Part shown: positions 23,705 through 49,354 of the stretch, one piece after another
Layout of the letters: every line of letters begins with the position of its first letter
How positions within the stretch are numbered: position 1 is the first letter of the stretch
NCBI GenBank assembly: GCA_017409785.1
Contig: JAFQSD010000004.1
Location: 48,663-112,662, forward strand
DNA: 64,000 bases
Direction: 5' to 3'
DNA from: Bacilli bacterium
Lineage (GTDB): Bacteria > Bacillota_I > Bacilli_A > RF39 > UBA660
Notes under the pieces: generated by a model
Seen by the model: the letters and a program-made list of their open reading frames with translations, nothing else
Told to the model about the DNA's origin: nothing
The model's database searches: none
Program-made: the position numbers and the translations under genes

Positions 23705-24399
23705 ATATACTTTAATATCTTCACAATATGATTACCACTCTTAGTAGTTTTAATAATTCCAATATATTTAAACTTACCAATCTTTCTTATACTAAAAGTA
23801 TCATTTTCTTTTAACGTATAAGAAAGATTTTTTAATAGTTCATTATTTAATAAAATTTCTTTATCTTTAACTTTCTCCTTAATCACGGCACGACTAGTGC
23901 CAGATAAATGAGATACAATTGTATCTATTCTTTCACTAGATACAATTAATTCAAGTTCTTCATAAGCACGTTCATAATCTTTTAAATAATCAAGATCTAA
24001 TTCAATAAGTTCAATTTTACTATTACGAACTTTAGTAAAATTCATTTCAAAATAATTTTGAAAAAGTTTTAAAATATAAATAAAATATCTACCATCATTA
24101 AGAATAATATCTCCATACATTTCTTTACTAATATTTAAAGAATACATTGTACCTAAAATATCTTGATGACGTAATTCATTAGAACATTTAATTTCATATA
24201 ATAAAACTTCGGGTTCTCGATCTAAATAATAAATTATCTTTTCGCTATCTCGGTTAGGAGAAAAAACATTAAGTCTGTTTTTTCCAAACTTTCTTTTAAC
24301 CTCTTTGGCTTCACTTAAATCTAAAAAGAAAGTTGGTTGACCATTATCAAGTCTAGTTACATTCTTTTGAATCTCATACATAAAATACCTCTTAAACAC
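23701..24399 (-). CDS. ylmH: YlmH-like S4-domain RNA-binding protein
   Basis: Colinear with B. subtilis YlmH as I recall it: LRHQDILGTMYSLNISKEMYGDIIL, SSERIDTIVSHLSGTSRAVIKEKVKDKEILLN, and a C-terminal S4-like tail. Confidence 0.65.
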   Translation of the reverse strand: MFKRYFMYEIQKNVTRLDNGQPTFFLDLSEAKEVKRKFGKNRLNVFSPNRDSEKIIYYLDREPEVLLYEIKCSNELRHQDILGTMYSLNISKEMYGDIILNDGRYFIYILKLFQNYFEMNFTKVRNSKIELIELDLDYLKDYERAYEELELIVSSERIDTIVSHLSGTSRAVIKEKVKDKEILLNNELLKNLSYTLKENDTFSIRKIGKFKYIGIIKTTKSGNHIVKILKYI

Positions 24400-24445
24400 T
24401 CGCTATTATATCAAATAAAATGTTATAATTAAAGTGGTGATTATA

Positions 24446-24844
24446 ATGAAAGTAATAACTGTAAAGCAACCATTCGCAACACTTATAGCAGAAGGTCTAA
24501 AAGAATATGAATTTAGAACATGGAGAACTAAATTTAGAGGTGATATTTTAATACATGCCGGTAAGGGAATAGATAAAAAGGCTATGGAAAGATATAAACA
24601 TTTAAATTTAGATTATCCATCAGGAAAAATAATAGCAAAAGCAACTATCACAGACTGTGTTTATGTAGATGATAATTTAAAAGAAGAATTACAAGAAAAA
24701 GATCCATTAGTATATTATGGTATACTTCAAAAAGATAGTGATTGGGATGGTTATGGATTTAAATTAGAAAACATAGAAAAGATAGAACCAATAGAAATAA
24801 ATGGAAAACTAAGTCTATGGGACTATGATTATAAAGACGAGTAA
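24446..24844 (+). CDS. ASCH domain protein
   Basis: MKVITVKQPFATLIAEGLKEYEFRTWRTKFRGDILIHAGK. The ATG at 24446 has RBS gtggtga, and the extended -10 TGTTATAAT lies just upstream, so the GTG at 24434 is unlikely. Confidence 0.7.
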   Translation: MKVITVKQPFATLIAEGLKEYEFRTWRTKFRGDILIHAGKGIDKKAMERYKHLNLDYPSGKIIAKATITDCVYVDDNLKEELQEKDPLVYYGILQKDSDWDGYGFKLENIEKIEPIEINGKLSLWDYDYKDE

Positions 24845-24858
24845 TCGTCTTTTTTTTG
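24833..24858 (+). terminator. intrinsic terminator after the ASCH gene
   Basis: agacga-gtaa-tcgtct followed by T8. Confidence 0.7.
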
Positions 24859-24879
24859 TAAACATAAATTGTGGAAAAC

Positions 24880-24906
24880 TTGACAAAGAGGTGGGGGGGG
24901 TACAAT
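24880..24906 (+). promoter_or_regulatory. promoter of secreted paralog A with a G8 homopolymer in the spacer
   Basis: TTGACA (24880-24885), a 15-nt spacer aagaggtGGGGGGGG, and TACAAT (24901-24906). The G8 run is at 24893-24900. Confidence 0.55.
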
Positions 24907-24931
24907 TTTACTAGAATAGGAGTTGCAGAAA

Positions 24932-25615
24932 ATGGAAAAATCAAGAAAAACTAAAGTTTTATTAATTATTGCATTAGTATTAGCAATAACAGGAATGTCT
25001 TTAGGATTTGCAGCTTTCTCATCAACTTTAACTATCTCATCAAGTGCGACTGTAACACCTAATAGTGATGATTTTAACCTTACGATATATGGTATTAGTG
25101 ATTATGTGGCTTGGGGAGATTTTCTAAATAGTTTAGACTTTTCACTTCTTTCTACTACAATATCTTCTCCAACACTTAACCCTACATCATCGTCGGCCGA
25201 AACAACTGCTACAACAGCAATTATAAATAATGATACAATGACATTATCAAATATAAGTGTAACATTCTCAAAGCCAAGTATAGAAACAGCTAATTATTAT
25301 TTTGTACTAAAAAACACAGGAAAATATACTGCATATATGAATTTAAATGAAAGTGAAATAGGAGAATTATGTACATGGGAAGAAAATACAACGGAAAGTT
25401 TAGCAGAACAAGCATGTAATTCTATATATTGGAATATATATACCATAGATAATCAGGGAAATCAAATAGAATTCGGCACAAGTCCAATATTACCAAATGA
25501 TTGGCAAATGCTATTGATTGAATTCAAATATCCAGAGGGTTCAGTCTTACCAGATGGAAATATTAAATATGAAGTAAGAGAATTAAAACTCCCATATACG
25601 ACAACACCACAATAA
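24932..25615 (+). CDS. secreted protein with SipW/TasA-type (camelysin-like) signal peptide, paralog A
   Basis: MEKSRKTKVLLIIALVLAITGMSLGFAAFSSTLTISSSATV. RBS AGGAG lies 9 nt upstream of the ATG at 24932; the ORF-track TTG at 24923 is unlikely. The mature part is beta-rich and Thr/Ser-rich. Confidence 0.7.
   Translation: MEKSRKTKVLLIIALVLAITGMSLGFAAFSSTLTISSSATVTPNSDDFNLTIYGISDYVAWGDFLNSLDFSLLSTTISSPTLNPTSSSAETTATTAIINNDTMTLSNISVTFSKPSIETANYYFVLKNTGKYTAYMNLNESEIGELCTWEENTTESLAEQACNSIYWNIYTIDNQGNQIEFGTSPILPNDWQMLLIEFKYPEGSVLPDGNIKYEVRELKLPYTTTPQ
24968..25060 (+). repeat. paralogous 5' coding segment, copy A (signal peptide region)
   Basis: About 93 nt, roughly 85-90 percent identical by eye to 27541..27633. 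Confidence 0.8.
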
Positions 25616-25641
25616 AAACACCAATTAGGTGTTTTTATTTT
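25614..25641. terminator. bidirectional terminator between convergent genes
   Basis: aaaaacacc-aatta-ggtgttttt, flanked by A-runs and T-runs. Confidence 0.7.
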
Positions 25642-26086
25642 ATAAAAATTCTTTAATTTCTTCTACGTATTCTTCTTGCATATCTACATATTCTTTCATG
25701 ATTTCTTTTACATTAGGATCTTCATCTTTTTGATTAATAAGTCTTCTTCCTTCAATAATTCCCATATTTAATCCCTGAAGTAACATCTCTGCAAGTTTTG
25801 AATCACTTCCATCATTCATAGTTCGCATTTGAATACCAGACCATGTCATAACTTTATTCATCGCATTTGTTTCATGAGGATCATCATCACTATATTTATC
25901 ATATACTTTATTAATTCTTTCTTCTAAGTCCTCATATTCTTCTAGTAAATCTTCACAAACTTTTTTAAATTTTTTATCTTCAATTTTTTCTAAGATAAAT
26001 TTAACTGCATCACTTCCCATACAACAACCTTTATTTAATTCATCTAAAATATCAATATTATTTTCTTCTTTCATAATTCCCTCCAT
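25640..26086 (-). CDS. hypothetical acidic all-helical protein (possibly four-helix-bundle/ferritin-like)
   Basis: 148 aa, Glu/Asp/Lys-rich helices. I could not place a catalytic motif. Start MEGIMKEEN or the internal MKEEN. Confidence 0.4.
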   Translation of the reverse strand: MEGIMKEENNIDILDELNKGCCMGSDAVKFILEKIEDKKFKKVCEDLLEEYEDLEERINKVYDKYSDDDPHETNAMNKVMTWSGIQMRTMNDGSDSKLAEMLLQGLNMGIIEGRRLINQKDEDPNVKEIMKEYVDMQEEYVEEIKEFL

Positions 26087-26179
26087 TTATAGTATTTACA
26101 CAATTTACAAAAAAATACATTTATAAAATATTAAAAAAAAACAATTATGATATACTTAAGTAAAGTAGAGGAGAAGACT

Positions 26180-26638
26180 ATGAAAAAGAAAATATTACTA
26201 GTTTTATTATTAATTGGAACATTATTTATAACAGGATGTACTGCGAAAGAAAAATTAGAACCAAATAATTTTAAAAAAATTATGGAGAAAAAAGAATTTG
26301 TTGTAGTAGATAACACAGGAATTGCTTTATCTGAAATTGGAAATGTTGAATTAAGCTATACCGCATCTCCGCAAGACCAACGATATACAATTGAATATTA
26401 TTCATTTGATGGAGAAGTATCTGCCCAAGGATTCTATGCTAAGAAACAAGCTGAATTAGGTTCAACAGGTTCACAAGTATATACAGAACTAAATCTTGGA
26501 AATTATTCAAAATATACAATGATTTATAATGGAAAATTCACTGCTATATCACGTGTTTCTAACACAGCTGTCTATGTAACAGCCGACAAAATATATGAAG
26601 AAGAAATAAAACAATTATTATTGGATATTGGTTACTAA
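26180..26638 (+). CDS. lipoprotein
   Basis: MKKKILLVLLLIGTLFITGC has the lipobox L-F-I-T-G-C. RBS GAGGAG precedes the ATG at 26180, and the extended -10 TGATATACT at 26148-26156 covers the ORF-track start. Confidence 0.7.
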   Translation: MKKKILLVLLLIGTLFITGCTAKEKLEPNNFKKIMEKKEFVVVDNTGIALSEIGNVELSYTASPQDQRYTIEYYSFDGEVSAQGFYAKKQAELGSTGSQVYTELNLGNYSKYTMIYNGKFTAISRVSNTAVYVTADKIYEEEIKQLLLDIGY

Positions 26639-26700
26639 AAAGACTCAACTTGACAAATGTATAAAATACGCATATCATATTAACGAATGGAGTTGATATT

Positions 26701-27375
26701 ATGGAATTAACTAATCCTTTATATAAAAATATGGGAGCACACGTTGTTGATACTATTTTTACAATTGATAAAGGTAGAATTAAAGTCCTTTTAATTAAAA
26801 GAAATAACGAACCATATAGAGGAAGTTGGGCTTTAGTAAGTGGAGCTATGTATAATAATGAACTTATTGAAACTGCAGCTTTACGTGAATTAAAAGAAAA
26901 AACAAATATCTCAGATATTGAATTAACTTTTATAGGGGTAGATGATGATACTGATAGATCACCACTATTAAGAATGTTTGCTTTTATTCATATCGGTCTT
27001 GTTGATTTTCAAAATATAAAATTTTTAAAAGAAACAGAAAAAACAATGGATGCAGATTGGTTTGACATTAATGATATTCCAGAACTTGCTTATGACCACA
27101 ATAAGATTTTAGATTATGCTATTGAAAAATTAAAAACAATGATTAATTCATCAAATATTTTAAAAAGAATTTATCCTAATGGATTTACAATCCCAGAAAT
27201 TCATAAAGTTTATGAATCAACATTAGGAGTAGAAATAGATAGACGTAACTTTAGAAAAAAACTTCTAACTCAAAAAATAATTCTTGATACAAATGAAACA
27301 ATAACTTTTGAAGGTAAGAAGCCAGCCAAAAAATATATATTTAATGATGAATTACCAGATAAAAAATTATTCTAG
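26701..27375 (+). CDS. NrtR-like regulator (Nudix-fold N-domain plus winged-helix C-domain)
   Basis: Nudix-like GSWALVSGAMYNNELIETAALRELKEKTN. The C-terminal segment FTIPEIHKVYESTLGVEIDRRNFRKKL is typical of the NrtR wHTH. Confidence 0.65.
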   Translation: MELTNPLYKNMGAHVVDTIFTIDKGRIKVLLIKRNNEPYRGSWALVSGAMYNNELIETAALRELKEKTNISDIELTFIGVDDDTDRSPLLRMFAFIHIGLVDFQNIKFLKETEKTMDADWFDINDIPELAYDHNKILDYAIEKLKTMINSSNILKRIYPNGFTIPEIHKVYESTLGVEIDRRNFRKKLLTQKIILDTNETITFEGKKPAKKYIFNDELPDKKLF

Positions 27376-27405
27376 AGAAGAACTTAAATTGTTCTTCTTT
27401 TTTTG
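27376..27405 (+). terminator. intrinsic terminator after the nrtR-like gene
   Basis: agaagaac-ttaaatt-gttcttct followed by T6. Confidence 0.7.
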
Positions 27406-27449
27406 ACAAAAACTAATATTAAAATAATGTAAAGTAAGACTAAGGAAAG

Positions 27450-27478
27450 TTGAAAAAAAACGTATAGAAAGGTACAAT
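27450..27478 (+). promoter_or_regulatory. promoter of secreted paralog B (A8 tract at the -35/spacer junction)
   Basis: TTGAAA (27450-27455) with an A8 run, a 17-nt spacer, and TACAAT (27473-27478). The architecture matches paralog A. Confidence 0.55.
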
Positions 27479-27504
27479 TATATTATAGAATTGGGGAAAT
27501 TAAT

Positions 27505-28371
27505 ATGGAAAGAAATAGACAAACAAAAATGATTACCATTATTGCATTAGTGATAGCCGTAGCAGGAATGTCTTTAGGATTTGCAGCATTTTCATCAACA
27601 TTAACTATTTCATCAAGTGCAACAGTTGCACCAGATAGTTCAAACTTTAAAGTTGGATTTTATGCCAGCACAACGTCTACTTTAGCAAGTGAAGCTCAAG
27701 ATCATGTTTATCCAAGTACAAATGGAAGTGCTAGTGCTACTTCACTATATATATCAGAAGGAACTACATCAATTTCTGGATTAAAAGCCAACTTTACCGC
27801 ACCGGGAGAATCAGTTACTTATAGTTTTTATGTTGGGAATAGTGGAGAGTATGATGCTTATTTAAGAGCAATTAACTTTAATAATGTAACTGGAGCAAGT
27901 TCAAATAAAGTTTGTACTGCTGGAACAGATGCAACTGATTCTTTAGTACAAGCTGCATGTAATGATATTTCAATTAGTGTAAATGTTCATGATATAACAG
28001 CAACATCTACAAGTTCCAGTATATCAGGTAAAGTATTATACAAAAAAACATTTGCACCAATTACAATAACTATTGAATATGCTGCAAATGGAAATAGAGC
28101 AGATGGACCATTCTCAGTATCTTTTGGAGATATTTCTATAGATTATAGTACTATTGACAATAATGTAAATACAATAACCTTTACAATTAACGATGAAATA
28201 TATTACGCCGAACAAGGAATGACTCATCTGGATTGGTTTGAAAGTTCATATAATACGTTGTATGATGATATAACAATATTGTTCTGTGATGGTGAAAATA
28301 AAATAATTAATGAAACCGATGTTCTTATAAATAACGAAGAATATTATCTTGGTGATTCATACTGCATTTAA
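27505..28371 (+). CDS. secreted protein with SipW/TasA-type signal peptide, paralog B
   Basis: MERNRQTKMITIIALVIAVAGMSLGFAAFSSTLTISSSATV, followed by a divergent beta-rich mature region. Confidence 0.7.
   Translation: MERNRQTKMITIIALVIAVAGMSLGFAAFSSTLTISSSATVAPDSSNFKVGFYASTTSTLASEAQDHVYPSTNGSASATSLYISEGTTSISGLKANFTAPGESVTYSFYVGNSGEYDAYLRAINFNNVTGASSNKVCTAGTDATDSLVQAACNDISISVNVHDITATSTSSSISGKVLYKKTFAPITITIEYAANGNRADGPFSVSFGDISIDYSTIDNNVNTITFTINDEIYYAEQGMTHLDWFESSYNTLYDDITILFCDGENKIINETDVLINNEEYYLGDSYCI
27541..27633 (+). repeat. paralogous 5' coding segment, copy B
   Basis: Matches 24968..25060. Confidence 0.8.
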
Positions 28372-46423: not shown

Positions 46424-49354
46424 ATGAACTTTGAAATATTATTAAGTAAATTATTAAGACTGCCACTAAATAAAGCGTTAGATATATATAATGAGTATCT
46501 AAAAAATAATCAAGATAACTTTGCTAATAATTTACGCGCCTCAAACTTACTTATGGAAAAAACACAAACAAGAAAAAGAATTAAAGATGAATGTTTTGAA
46601 ACTGCACTTATGGCTTTGGCTTTCATGTCACAAAAGAAGAACCAATTAGCGGATATGATGCTTGAAGAGACAAAGCCATACCCTATGATTGTTTGGATGG
46701 AAGTAATAGGAGAAATGGATGATGAAGGAATAAAAGGTGTATTAAAAAATTATGCAGATAAATTACCTCCTCCAATAATTGAGACATTAATTTTAAATTT
46801 ATCAGAGTCAAAGCAAGCAGTAGCAATAAATAAGTATAAAAATAGATTGGATTCAAAAAGTGAAATGTTTTATTCATTTTATTTATGTTTATCTAAAGAA
46901 GCACAACAAGAACTTGATAGACTGACTAATAAAGCTGTAAAAGTAAATCCACTACTACAATTGAGTGATCAAGAACCGTCTCAAATAAAAAAAAGCTTAA
47001 TTGTAAATAAAGAATTATATAAAGAGATTCCAATGGATGATATTATTGAAGTTCTTTTATTAAATGTAAATTCATCAGAAGATATTTTTGACATATTAAA
47101 GACTTATGAAGATAGACAAACAGAAATATCTGATATGCGATTTAAATTATTAGTTGGTAGACTAAAAGTATTATTAAATGAAGAAACATATAACCATAGA
47201 TTTGAAAATGCAGAAGAAATATTTAATAAACTAAAATCTCGTTTTAAAAGATTAGGTTTAAAAGACTCACTTGCTATCTTAGATGCCAAAGTAGATGGTT
47301 ATTATTCTTGTGAACATGGTAATGAAATAATTTATGAATTTTTAGATATTGCATATGAAAACGAAAACCTAAGAGACTTTGTAAATGAAAAAACAATCTC
47401 AGCACTGGTTGAAAGATTTGTAAATGATTGCAGAAGTAAAGAATATACAGTTGAAGACTTCCGAAGATTAGTTGAAAAAACTACAACGACTAAGCCTTAT
47501 AAGTTAATAAAAGATGATTATATTGAAGCAATAATTGCCTGTGGTTCATTAATGAAAAACCACATAATATCAGATCAAGATCCTCATTTTTTAGAATTAC
47601 GTAGAAGATTTATTTCTATGCTAAATGATCAAGTAGAAAAAGATGGAACTTTAACAGAAGAAGTTAATTTCAATGGATTATTCTATCGTTTAATAAAAGG
47701 TAGTGTTGATTTTGATAAGGTCTTTAATACTAAAACATATAAAGGCTTAATATATCTAACAAAATCTGGACGAGTATTTAATAATCCAGACTTGATCACA
47801 AAATATTTATCAGACGAGCAAATAAGAAAATTAGATATATCACCAGTTCTACATTTAAAGAAAGAGCTAATTAATGAAGCTAATAGAAAACATAAAGAAG
47901 TAAAGCCTAATAGTGAATTAGATCCTCGCTATGCAGTATCAGATTTTAAAGAAAGAATGATGCTTCAATTACTTTGTTATTTTGGTGAAACTAGAGCAAG
48001 ACATATTATCAAATCAGCTATGAAACCAACTAGAATGGAAAACATTTTTGATAGTCTTAATTACAAAGATATTAAGATTGATGAAAATGGTAAACCAATT
48101 GTAAATCAAGAATTAGTTGATTTCTTATTCGGAAGAGGTAGTGTAGCAGAAAAGAACACAGTTATGAATAGAATAATTCGAGAAGAATTATTAGATTTCG
48201 GAAGATTTGTTCCTGAAATATGTAATAACTACGAAGAGGTAAAAAAAGCTTGTCATGGAATTATAACTGTAAAAAGAGCAATGGCTCATTTTGAAGATAT
48301 AGTTCTTCCTATTGAGTTAAAACCAAATGAACGAGAATTTAAACCGGCATTAAAAGAAATGCGTATTACTAAAGAAGATACTTTAGCCAAGGGAGTTTCC
48401 TTATGTCATGATGCCAAAAAAAGAACATCATCAACTATACCAAAAGTAAAAGGAAAATTAGGAGACTTTACATATGAAATACTAGATGTAAAAGATCCGT
48501 TTGCTTTAGCGGTAGGATACTTATCACATTGTTGTTTTGTTGTTGATGGTATTTCATATTCAGCATTAAAACATTCAATGCAATCTGTAAACGGAAGAAC
48601 ATTTGTTGTTTATCATAAAGGCAAATTTTTAACACAAAGTTGGATGTGGAGAAATGGCGATGTTGTTTGTTTCGACAGTGTTGAATCAGGAAGTAGTATT
48701 CATGGTGCCTACAATGATGATATAAAATTAGTAGATGTCTACAAACATGTCGCGGATGAAATAATGGATATTTCAAAATGTAATGAAACGGATGCAGAAA
48801 GAGTTAAAGTAGTCACAGTAGGGGCATCAGATTATATCTTCAAAGGACTACCACAAGTCGAAGGAAAAGTTCCAAGACCACAAGAAAGAGATGTATATGT
48901 TTACGATTCATCAACGCAAGGAATTCTTGCAGGAGAAATGCCTAAAAAGCCAAATTATGATCCTGTATCAATTAGATACAAAGACCCAAGAAAAAGAGTG
49001 CATAAGTTCTTAAGTATTGAAGAAGCAGATGTTGATGATTTAGATGAAGCATTATTAAAACTACAATCAATTAAATATGAGTCTACTGGTAGTGAAGAAG
49101 TAGAAGATATTACTACAATGAACCAACTATTTGTTGGCCAAGACTGGTATATAAAAACAACAAAAGATGGCACTGTCGAAGTAGAAATATTAGGTGAGGA
49201 AGATGCTTCACTTGAAGAATGTAAACGATATGCTGAACTGTTAGGAATAGAATTTGAAATGGAACACAAAGAATTAAATGATGGTTACCAATTATCAAAA
49301 GACGATGTAGTAAAACAGCTACGAAAGACAAAATTAGAAAGTAGGAGGGGATAA
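46424..49354 (+). CDS. large hypothetical protein (orphan): about 650-aa helical N-region plus Cys-containing C-terminal globular module
   Basis: 976 aa. I saw no Walker A, HExxH, DEAD or nuclease motif. The C-module is FALAVGYLSHCCFVVDGISYSALKHSMQSVNGRTFVVYHKGKFLTQSWMWRNGDVVCFDSVE. It is faintly reminiscent of PcfJ-like domains, from memory and at low confidence. Confidence 0.55.
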   Translation: MNFEILLSKLLRLPLNKALDIYNEYLKNNQDNFANNLRASNLLMEKTQTRKRIKDECFETALMALAFMSQKKNQLADMMLEETKPYPMIVWMEVIGEMDDEGIKGVLKNYADKLPPPIIETLILNLSESKQAVAINKYKNRLDSKSEMFYSFYLCLSKEAQQELDRLTNKAVKVNPLLQLSDQEPSQIKKSLIVNKELYKEIPMDDIIEVLLLNVNSSEDIFDILKTYEDRQTEISDMRFKLLVGRLKVLLNEETYNHRFENAEEIFNKLKSRFKRLGLKDSLAILDAKVDGYYSCEHGNEIIYEFLDIAYENENLRDFVNEKTISALVERFVNDCRSKEYTVEDFRRLVEKTTTTKPYKLIKDDYIEAIIACGSLMKNHIISDQDPHFLELRRRFISMLNDQVEKDGTLTEEVNFNGLFYRLIKGSVDFDKVFNTKTYKGLIYLTKSGRVFNNPDLITKYLSDEQIRKLDISPVLHLKKELINEANRKHKEVKPNSELDPRYAVSDFKERMMLQLLCYFGETRARHIIKSAMKPTRMENIFDSLNYKDIKIDENGKPIVNQELVDFLFGRGSVAEKNTVMNRIIREELLDFGRFVPEICNNYEEVKKACHGIITVKRAMAHFEDIVLPIELKPNEREFKPALKEMRITKEDTLAKGVSLCHDAKKRTSSTIPKVKGKLGDFTYEILDVKDPFALAVGYLSHCCFVVDGISYSALKHSMQSVNGRTFVVYHKGKFLTQSWMWRNGDVVCFDSVESGSSIHGAYNDDIKLVDVYKHVADEIMDISKCNETDAERVKVVTVGASDYIFKGLPQVEGKVPRPQERDVYVYDSSTQGILAGEMPKKPNYDPVSIRYKDPRKRVHKFLSIEEADVDDLDEALLKLQSIKYESTGSEEVEDITTMNQLFVGQDWYIKTTKDGTVEVEILGEEDASLEECKRYAELLGIEFEMEHKELNDGYQLSKDDVVKQLRKTKLESRRG

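Follow-up and report, generated by a model that had tools for sequence, protein, structure and literature searches.

For the porA gene of Neisseria meningitidis, work by van der Ende in 1995 reportedly found expression to be lowered or abolished when a shorter tract leaves a spacer of 15-16 nt. That a homopolymer may control the length of the promoter spacer is described as established for fetA and porA in PMC5320596, and Table 1 and Fig. 1 of that paper, citing van der Ende 1995 and Carson 2000, present a Neisseria fetA tract that differs between strains, from C10 to C14. Analogous behavior is summarized for mycoplasmas in PMC10502178: in Mycoplasma hyorhinis, each vlp gene is switched on or off as the poly-A tract in its promoter gains or loses bases (citing Citti and Wise 1995), and in Mycoplasma mycoides TA repeats in the promoter spacer control the variable surface protein Vmm (citing Persson 2002). 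According to a recent review, phase variation has to be confined to a single locus, to be reversible and to reach a minimal rate, with variants detectable without selection at roughly 1e-5 or more (PMC11868660). Slower homopolymer changes are classed in section 6 of the same paper as 'mutation-prone adaptive variation', and the 7C tract of N. meningitidis siaD, homopolymer indels of M. tuberculosis and the 8C/7C tract of group A Streptococcus mga are described there as mutation-prone with an adaptive effect, yet short of phase variation.

Here, we describe a real, non-random and naturally length-polymorphic poly-G promoter spacer which, judged from sequence comparison, is a credible candidate contingency locus with a mechanism of known kind. 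It lies in a 64-kb stretch of DNA, hereafter the window, from uncultured low-GC Bacilli of the ruminant gut (records MBQ2910505.1, the XIEF21 scaffolds and the water-deer colon MAG JAGARQ01), upstream of a gene for an uncharacterised protein, gene A (Table 1). The protein combines an N-terminal signal or anchor helix and an invariant GFAAFS motif with a beta-sandwich domain, and its AlphaFold model has a pLDDT of 88. Profile searches of gene A and its paralog, gene B, returned no Pfam, NCBIfam or PDB-sequence match, and a Foldseek comparison of gene A with the PDB gave no assignment. The family is nonetheless a large one, with 2141 clusters at 50% identity recovered by profile search at E <=1e-3 and 604 at E <=1e-30, and the matches listed by homology search all derive from metagenomes or MAGs. 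The N-termini of the A and B proteins are almost identical, consisting of a basic stretch, a hydrophobic helix and GMSLGFAAFSSTLTISSSATV. The leader of gene A, MEKSRKTKVLLIIALVLAITGMSLGFAAFSS, is without cysteine and hence without a lipobox. The lipoprotein at the locus is encoded by a neighboring open reading frame (26147-26638), and an NrtR-like NUDIX/winged-helix regulator is encoded between the two paralogs. An open reading frame further downstream, considered as a MutS candidate (38311-40947), turned out to be AdhE.

Table 1. Features of the gene A locus, of its paralog and of the homopolymers used for comparison (positions within the window).
Feature	Position	Strand	Remarks
Intrinsic terminator of the upstream ASCH-domain gene	24833-24857	+	stem-loop 24833-24852, T8 tail 24850-24857 (terminator scan); tail used as control, lengths 8, 7 and 6 between strains
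-35 hexamer TTGACA	24880-24885	+	read from sequence
Promoter spacer, 15 nt	24886-24900	+	aagaggtGGGGGGGG (AAGAGGT + G8)
G8 homopolymer	24893-24900	+	length-polymorphic element; 3' end of spacer, abuts -10; states 10, 9, 8, 6 and interrupted forms
-10 hexamer TACAAT	24901-24906	+	25 nt from ATG
Ribosome-binding site AGGAG	24918-24922	+	9 nt from ATG; read from sequence
Gene A	24932-25615	+	227-aa secreted or membrane-anchored protein, uncharacterised family (translation)
Control A7, intergenic	26109-26115		constant within species
Control A9, intergenic	26133-26141		lengths 9; 8 in same-species contig L004; 6 in divergent species L003
Control A7, coding	26273-26279		constant
Paralog B promoter TTGAAA-17-TACAAT	27450-27478	+	ordinary comparator, no switch
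Gene B	27505-28371	+	288 aa, paralog of gene A (31% identical, E = 2e-31)

The regulatory region of gene A is limited upstream by the terminator of the ASCH-domain gene, with the promoter element placed directly after it and the start codon at 24932. Of the two hexamers, TTGACA matches the consensus and TACAAT comes close to it. A 61-aa open reading frame on the minus strand (24759-24944, with a TTG start) runs across the terminator and the 3' end of the ASCH gene; we treated it as spurious. The sequence-only reading had proposed a promoter in which TTGACA and TACAAT are separated by 15 nt with eight G between the elements, and the sequence indeed reads so at 24880-24906. Also its statement that this is the only long G/C homopolymer holds throughout the window, where no other G or C run of six or more is present, the next-longest being two G5 and one C5. 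At a window GC content of 27.3%, the expected number of G runs of at least eight is about 0.02, under an independent-base model and a first-order Markov model alike, and the combination TTGACA-N14-19-TACAAT occurs once as compared to 0.21 expected. The run thus displays what is looked for in a slippage tract, being an uninterrupted homopolymer of sufficient length for slipped-strand mispairing and over-represented relative to genome composition, and in silico it falls within the -35/-10 spacer of the predicted promoter of gene A. The promoter is absent from the list produced by our promoter scanner because the scanner accepts 16-18 nt spacers only. Between the terminator and the ribosome-binding site, inspection of the sequence revealed no alternative hexamer pair; a TAGAAT at 24912-24917 is without a -35 partner at 16-18 nt. 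A search of 24300-27600 against Rfam matched no family, leaving a riboswitch or leader RNA unsupported.

Paralog B serves as a comparator. Its promoter, TTGAAA-17-TACAAT, is real, as the sequence-only reading had maintained, but the A8 run, which that reading had likened in position to the G tract, is found at 27453-27460, where it overlaps the -35 hexamer, and it is not conserved in the divergent species represented by contig L003. Since the G tract abuts the -10 hexamer, the A8 run is no counterpart of it. The look-up of paralog B matched the window's own contig only, and the A8 comparison accordingly relates to L003 alone. More generally, TTG followed by five to eight A is a recurrent form of the -35 element among promoters of the family, and it is length-invariant in eight orthologous human-gut loci.

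We then turn to the length of the tract in other assemblies. By look-up of exact proteins and a single scan for a DNA pattern, we obtained 17 additional assemblies of the gene A locus, in each of which gene A has the ASCH gene on one side and a conserved gene of 144 aa on the other. The look-up of the ASCH protein used its 132-aa form; databases start this gene later than the 136-aa open reading frame. Scanning a genome collection for the promoter pattern gave a single match, L003, and the exact pattern of the window's promoter allele had no match in JGI metagenomes. The -10 hexamer TACAAT is invariant in 18/18 assemblies of the locus, and the -35 hexamer TTGACA is kept in all but one (L005, with TTTACT, on a contig at 3x coverage). 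Two promoter alleles are present, and both share the two hexamers despite different spacer sequences. Allele 1 is TTGACA-AAGAG[G/A]T-Gn-TACAAT and exists with G8 and a 15-nt spacer (the window, on the same contig as L001, L093 and L105, as well as L096, L098 and L099), with G9 and 16 nt (L002, L095, L100, which is the same as L101, L003 and L102), and with G10 and 17 nt (L006, L007, L008 and L009). Allele 2, TTGACA-GGAATAAGT...-TACAAT, has a spacer that is unrelated to that of allele 1 (GGAATAAGTAGAGGGGGG, 18 nt). Its spacers measure either 18 nt, with G5-G6 or interrupted runs, or 19 nt with G10 (L094 and L097); the 3' part of the 18-nt forms reads AGAGGGGGG (L004, L010, L012 and L104), AGAGGAGGG (L011) or GGAGGGGGA (L103), and the low-coverage L005 contig carries TTTACT...GGTTGG, likewise with 18 nt.

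Over 1271 bp, L002 is set apart from the window by two substitutions (0.16% divergence) and by one extra G, giving G9, and in a 3.6-kb comparison with L006 (1.7% divergent) indels are confined to the G tract and the T tail of the terminator. In L003 and L102, on a background divergence of about 10% (100/949 positions), promoter and leader are nearly unchanged and the tract is G9. The sequence-only reading had suggested that gain of one or two G would bring the spacer to 16-17 nt, and had held that a tract of invariant length across strains would speak against a switch. Orthologous promoters do carry variable tracts, with G8, G9 and G10 in otherwise unchanged flanks; the length varies in one-G steps that take the spacer from 15 to 16 and 17 nt, and this natural series supports the tract as a candidate slipped-strand switch. 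Furthermore, the difference in length between near-identical assemblies with identical flanks assigns the variation to a single locus, which is the one of the three hallmarks of phase variation in PMC11868660 that is seen here. In Logan, which was assembled on k=31 de Bruijn graphs cleared of singleton k-mers (PMC12424806), contig L099 stops right behind the eighth G. In a graph of this kind the position is the branch point between G8 and G9-or-longer alleles, which hints at length heterogeneity within a sample.

Such differences might in principle be sequencing or assembly errors, as poly-G is error-prone on some Illumina chemistries, low-coverage contigs do exist in the set (L005 at 3x) and one contig ends within the tract. 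However, contigs of one clade agree in length across assemblers and studies: G8 is shared by all four contigs with 0/950 upstream differences, and G10 by all four of the L006 clade, with the caveat that several samples were taken in one study and are perhaps not independent. The lengths also co-segregate with linked SNPs, and G9 is recovered both in L100, a contig at 65x coverage, and in L101, the Logan assembly of another run. Given this agreement, which extends to different assemblers and to a contig at 65x, we hold an artefact to be a very improbable source of the length series.

The promoters of the wider family, assessed in 80 loci from metagenomes (247 kb in total), place gene A in context. 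In strong family promoters the most frequent spacer length is 17 nt, 18/23 fall within 16-18 nt, and the distance from the -10 hexamer to the ATG is 21-31 nt in 16 of the same 23, a range that includes the 25 nt of gene A. Two distant homologs have the same layout and the same distance to the ATG, with TTGACA-18-TACAAT in L049 and TTGACA-17-TACAAT in L045. Moreover, the sole A/T runs of at least 11 in these 247 kb are four poly-T tracts (T13 in L061 and in L089, T14 in L080 and T17 in L063), each situated 50-55 nt upstream of a family gene and between a TTG and a -10 box, the latter being GATATTATAAT in L061, L063 and L089, and TATCAT in L080. The inferred spacers of the poly-T loci are 16, 16, 17 and 19 nt, and a tract-less sibling, L086, has TTGAAA-17-TATAAT. 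While the flanks of the four loci are unrelated, a promoter/5' leader cassette of about 90 nt and the region coding for the signal peptide are common to them, and the mature regions are divergent. On the basis of these comparisons, a homopolymer in the promoter spacer appears to have arisen at least twice in the family, which counts against the G tract being a pure accident.

These data also bear on whether spacing is what matters. It could be argued that the hexamers do not form a functional promoter, or that the G-rich block is the site of a regulator or a DNA structural element, with its length being of importance in another way than through the distance between the hexamers. A G-rich block is indeed found beside TACAAT in all alleles, even where it is interrupted, which could reflect a sequence-specific requirement, and the NrtR-like gene between the paralogs offers a conceivable regulator. 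On the other hand, TTGACA and TACAAT are kept across unrelated spacers and recur in the same layout in L049 and L045, and neither another hexamer pair nor an Rfam element is found in the regions searched. We consider a role other than spacing improbable, and the two hexamers presumably constitute the active promoter of gene A.

The gene downstream of the tract is strongly diversified. Alleles at the syntenic position of gene A are 82-89% identical in their first 45 residues and 25-35% in the mature domain, and the L003 ortholog of gene A is 39% identical in the mature protein, as compared to 77% for the ortholog of paralog B. Conversely, the promoter of paralog B in L003 has diverged normally, unlike that of gene A. 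The promoter region is in addition mosaic: strains with allele 2 are 27% divergent from the window across 24885-24981, and their gene body is nearly identical to that of the window (0-1 differences per 100 bp). The joining of divergent mature regions to a shared, conserved promoter/leader cassette is the arrangement known from vlp-type families. As judged from these alignments, gene A shows the pattern that diversifying selection and frequent recombination would leave on a surface or secreted protein, and it is genes of this kind that are usually placed under contingency control.

A more demanding alternative is that the tract is mutation-prone without being an evolved switch. It would then have originated by chance, or through A-to-G changes in a G-rich spacer, and would mutate at a modest rate, with strains fixing different promoter strengths or carrying neutral polymorphism. 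With about 0.02 expected per 64 kb, a genome of 1.5-2 Mb could conceivably contain one G8 by chance. The other long runs of the same 3.6 kb served as control homopolymers, and the T8 tail and the A9 vary too; the G tract has the most states among the homopolymers of the region, yet it is not categorically different. In allele 2, the intermediates GGAGGGGGA, AGAGGAGGG and AGAGGGGGG together with G10 fit a stepwise build-up and decay of the run. Tract length is also clade-specific and stable within near-identical contigs. As a rough inference, some 2-4 length changes over a strain tree of few-percent divergence correspond to a rate on the order of 100x the per-site substitution rate, a range that section 6 of PMC11868660 assigns to non-phase-variable, mutation-prone loci. 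A consensus length that is stable within clones implies either a modest mutation rate or selection holding each state; very fast unselected switching would be expected to make the consensus converge on one mode, and the clade-specific lengths count against it.

Several observations are less readily accommodated by a tract that merely mutates. It has remained uninterrupted and of similar length across a species divergence of about 10%, over which the paralog B promoter diverged. Much longer poly-T tracts (13-17) have independently evolved in a distant branch of the family, where they occupy the same place in the promoter, and the G tract is tied to a gene under obvious diversification. At the fine scale, L002 and the window are 0.16% divergent and already unlike in tract length, and L099 breaks at the tract. 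Weighing both sides, we regard a mutation-prone tract that is no evolved switch as rather unlikely, albeit as the alternative that deserves to be taken most seriously.

We favor, as the probable reading, that the G tract is a slippage-prone spacer element of a sigma-A/sigma-70-type promoter and that it acts, in the manner of the porA, fetA and vlp tracts, as a contingency or 'volume-control' locus at the level of transcription. In this mechanism, gain or loss of a single G by replication slippage would alter the distance between the -35 and -10 hexamers, to 15 nt with G8, 16 nt with G9 and 17 nt with G10. Promoter strength would follow the spacer, with 17 nt being optimal and 15 nt poor, a step that we infer from the general behavior of sigma-70/sigma-A, from the 17-nt mode of the family and from the porA, fetA and vlp precedents. 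Tract length would in this manner alter expression, and transcription of this hypervariable secreted or surface protein would be heritably set from low or off (15 nt) via intermediate (16 nt) to full (17 nt), with switching that is presumably frequent and reversible. The window strain is then predicted to be low or off, and the L006 clade to be full-on.

A wider interpretation is that the gene A family as a whole is a previously unrecognised system of phase and antigenic variation, with a conserved cassette, repeated homopolymer switches (poly-G, and poly-T of 13-17) and mature domains recombined between strains. We advance this only tentatively and consider it doubtful. Were it correct, the subunits may be filament proteins of the TasA-like or archaeal-thread-like type, amounting to a phase-variable surface fiber in commensal Firmicutes; profile searches for a TasA/camelysin, archaeal bundling-pilin or thread-subunit identity returned no match to Pfam Peptidase_M73, TasA or a PDB sequence.

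To our knowledge, repeat-mediated phase variation has been documented nearly entirely in cultured pathogens, and studies of phase variation in gut commensals have focused on invertible promoters. The mechanism itself would be unsurprising to a specialist. What the present locus contributes is a naturally occurring set of spacers with G8, G9 and G10, read straight from metagenome assemblies of uncultured Bacilli of the ruminant gut and preceding a gene with a mature domain that is swapped between strains. If the tract controls expression, repeat-based contingency loci operate in uncultured commensal Firmicutes, and such loci can be found by comparison of assemblies. The work also draws attention to a very large uncharacterised family of secreted proteins, which likely forms a point of contact with host, phage or community that is under diversifying selection.

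How the locus relates to the described systems can be specified further. The closest resemblance is to the poly-G of N. meningitidis porA and the poly-C of Neisseria fetA/frpB, as in all three a G/C homopolymer that varies between strains is positioned between the -35 and -10 elements. In porA and fetA, however, single-nucleotide changes step the transcript level, and both rate and effect have been measured, whereas the present length series comes from assemblies. Moreover, PorA and FetA are outer-membrane proteins of Gram-negative pathogens, and the product here is an uncharacterised secreted beta-sandwich protein of uncultured low-GC Bacilli.

With vlp, the family shares a multigene composition, a conserved promoter and leader, divergent mature domains and homopolymer spacers (poly-G, with poly-T in a subgroup). 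Vlps are on the other hand lipoproteins with in-frame tandem repeats and size variation, while gene A is without a lipobox cysteine and without repeats; none of the latter were found in genes A and B, and vlp-type size variation is for this reason rejected. A poly-A is present in the promoter of each vlp gene, as opposed to a tract in only some members here, and there is no sequence homology between the two. Vmm is similar in that repeat length changes within a spacer, in a low-GC Mollicute, but its repeat is a dinucleotide rather than a homopolymer.

Finally, the tracts of siaD, M. tuberculosis and mga resemble the G tract in being short homopolymers with a raised but modest rate of change, in agreement with the clade-stable lengths at the G tract. 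Those tracts are nevertheless intragenic, and tracts of the siaD type are expected by chance in GC-rich genomes. The G tract of gene A, in contrast, resides in a promoter spacer, is a compositional outlier at 27% GC and belongs to a kind of element that recurs in its family.

Gene A, which encodes a secreted or membrane-anchored protein, is a hypervariable locus. Between strains with near-identical flanks, its mature domain retains only 25-35% identity (window 24932-25615 compared with the assemblies L094, L095, L100, L102, L103, L104 and L003:2850-3560), while in the same comparison the leader is 82-89% identical and the protein length ranges from 227 to 241 aa. In L003, the ortholog of gene A is 39% identical to that of the window, as compared to 77% for paralog B. 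Two further genes are located between the paralogs (see the table). Elsewhere in the window, an ORF of 976 aa (46424-49354), for which a Pfam search returned no match, is preceded by one of the two G5 runs of the window, placed inside its ribosome-binding site AAGGGGGATATATATG.

The promoter and 5' coding region of gene A (24788-24981) are mosaic. Strains with allele 2, the promoter version with the same hexamers and a different spacer, diverge from the window by up to 27% across this segment (L004, L010-L012), while the remainder of their gene A is almost identical to it. L003 displays the reverse pattern, and these opposite patterns thus imply recombination, with breakpoints in the vicinity of the promoter and leader. 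L005 (L005:270-405; ERZ28436101 NODE_59725) has 36 differences from L004, of which 9 fall within the 24 nt that cover the -35 hexamer and spacer, and the changes there are mostly G-to-T. The coverage of this contig is 3x, and the changes represent either real decay of the promoter or low-coverage error.

For the poly-G tract of the gene A spacer, a single Logan contig (L099:1-1039, SRR14556527) hints at the situation within a sample, as it stops exactly behind the eighth G. In a de Bruijn assembly with k=31, the paths of G8 and of longer alleles separate at this position, and the contig end is therefore a possible sign of tract heterogeneity within the sample. Two other runs serve as neutral homopolymer controls, namely the T tail of the terminator (24850-24857), with T8, T7 or T6 depending on the strain, and an intergenic A9 (26133-26141), with a length of 9 or 8.

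Features between the paralogs and in promoters of the distant subgroup
Feature	Position	Location
Small lipoprotein, lipobox LFITGC	26147-26638	between paralogs A and B
NrtR-like NUDIX and winged-helix regulator	26701-27375	between paralogs A and B
Poly-T, 13 nt	L061:1947-1959	between TTG and -10 box
Poly-T, 13 nt	L089:1266-1278	between TTG and -10 box
Poly-T, 14 nt	L080:1960-1973	between TTG and -10 box
Poly-T, 17 nt	L063:1943-1959	between TTG and -10 box

Within the wider protein family, eight loci (L013, L022, L078, L085, L087, L088, L091 and L092) carry the 3' terminal part of a second family-like gene, with the C-terminus ...DG.F.V.FGDI.L.YS..D, just ahead of the family gene at a distance of about 110 nt, demonstrating that tandem arrays of family genes without promoters of their own exist. 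A distant subgroup, recognized by the N-terminus MKNKQG[IL]TIA..., is represented by four loci with unrelated flanks that share a promoter and leader cassette of about 90 nt. This cassette houses the poly-T tracts, which are the only A/T runs of at least 11 nt in 247 kb of family loci.
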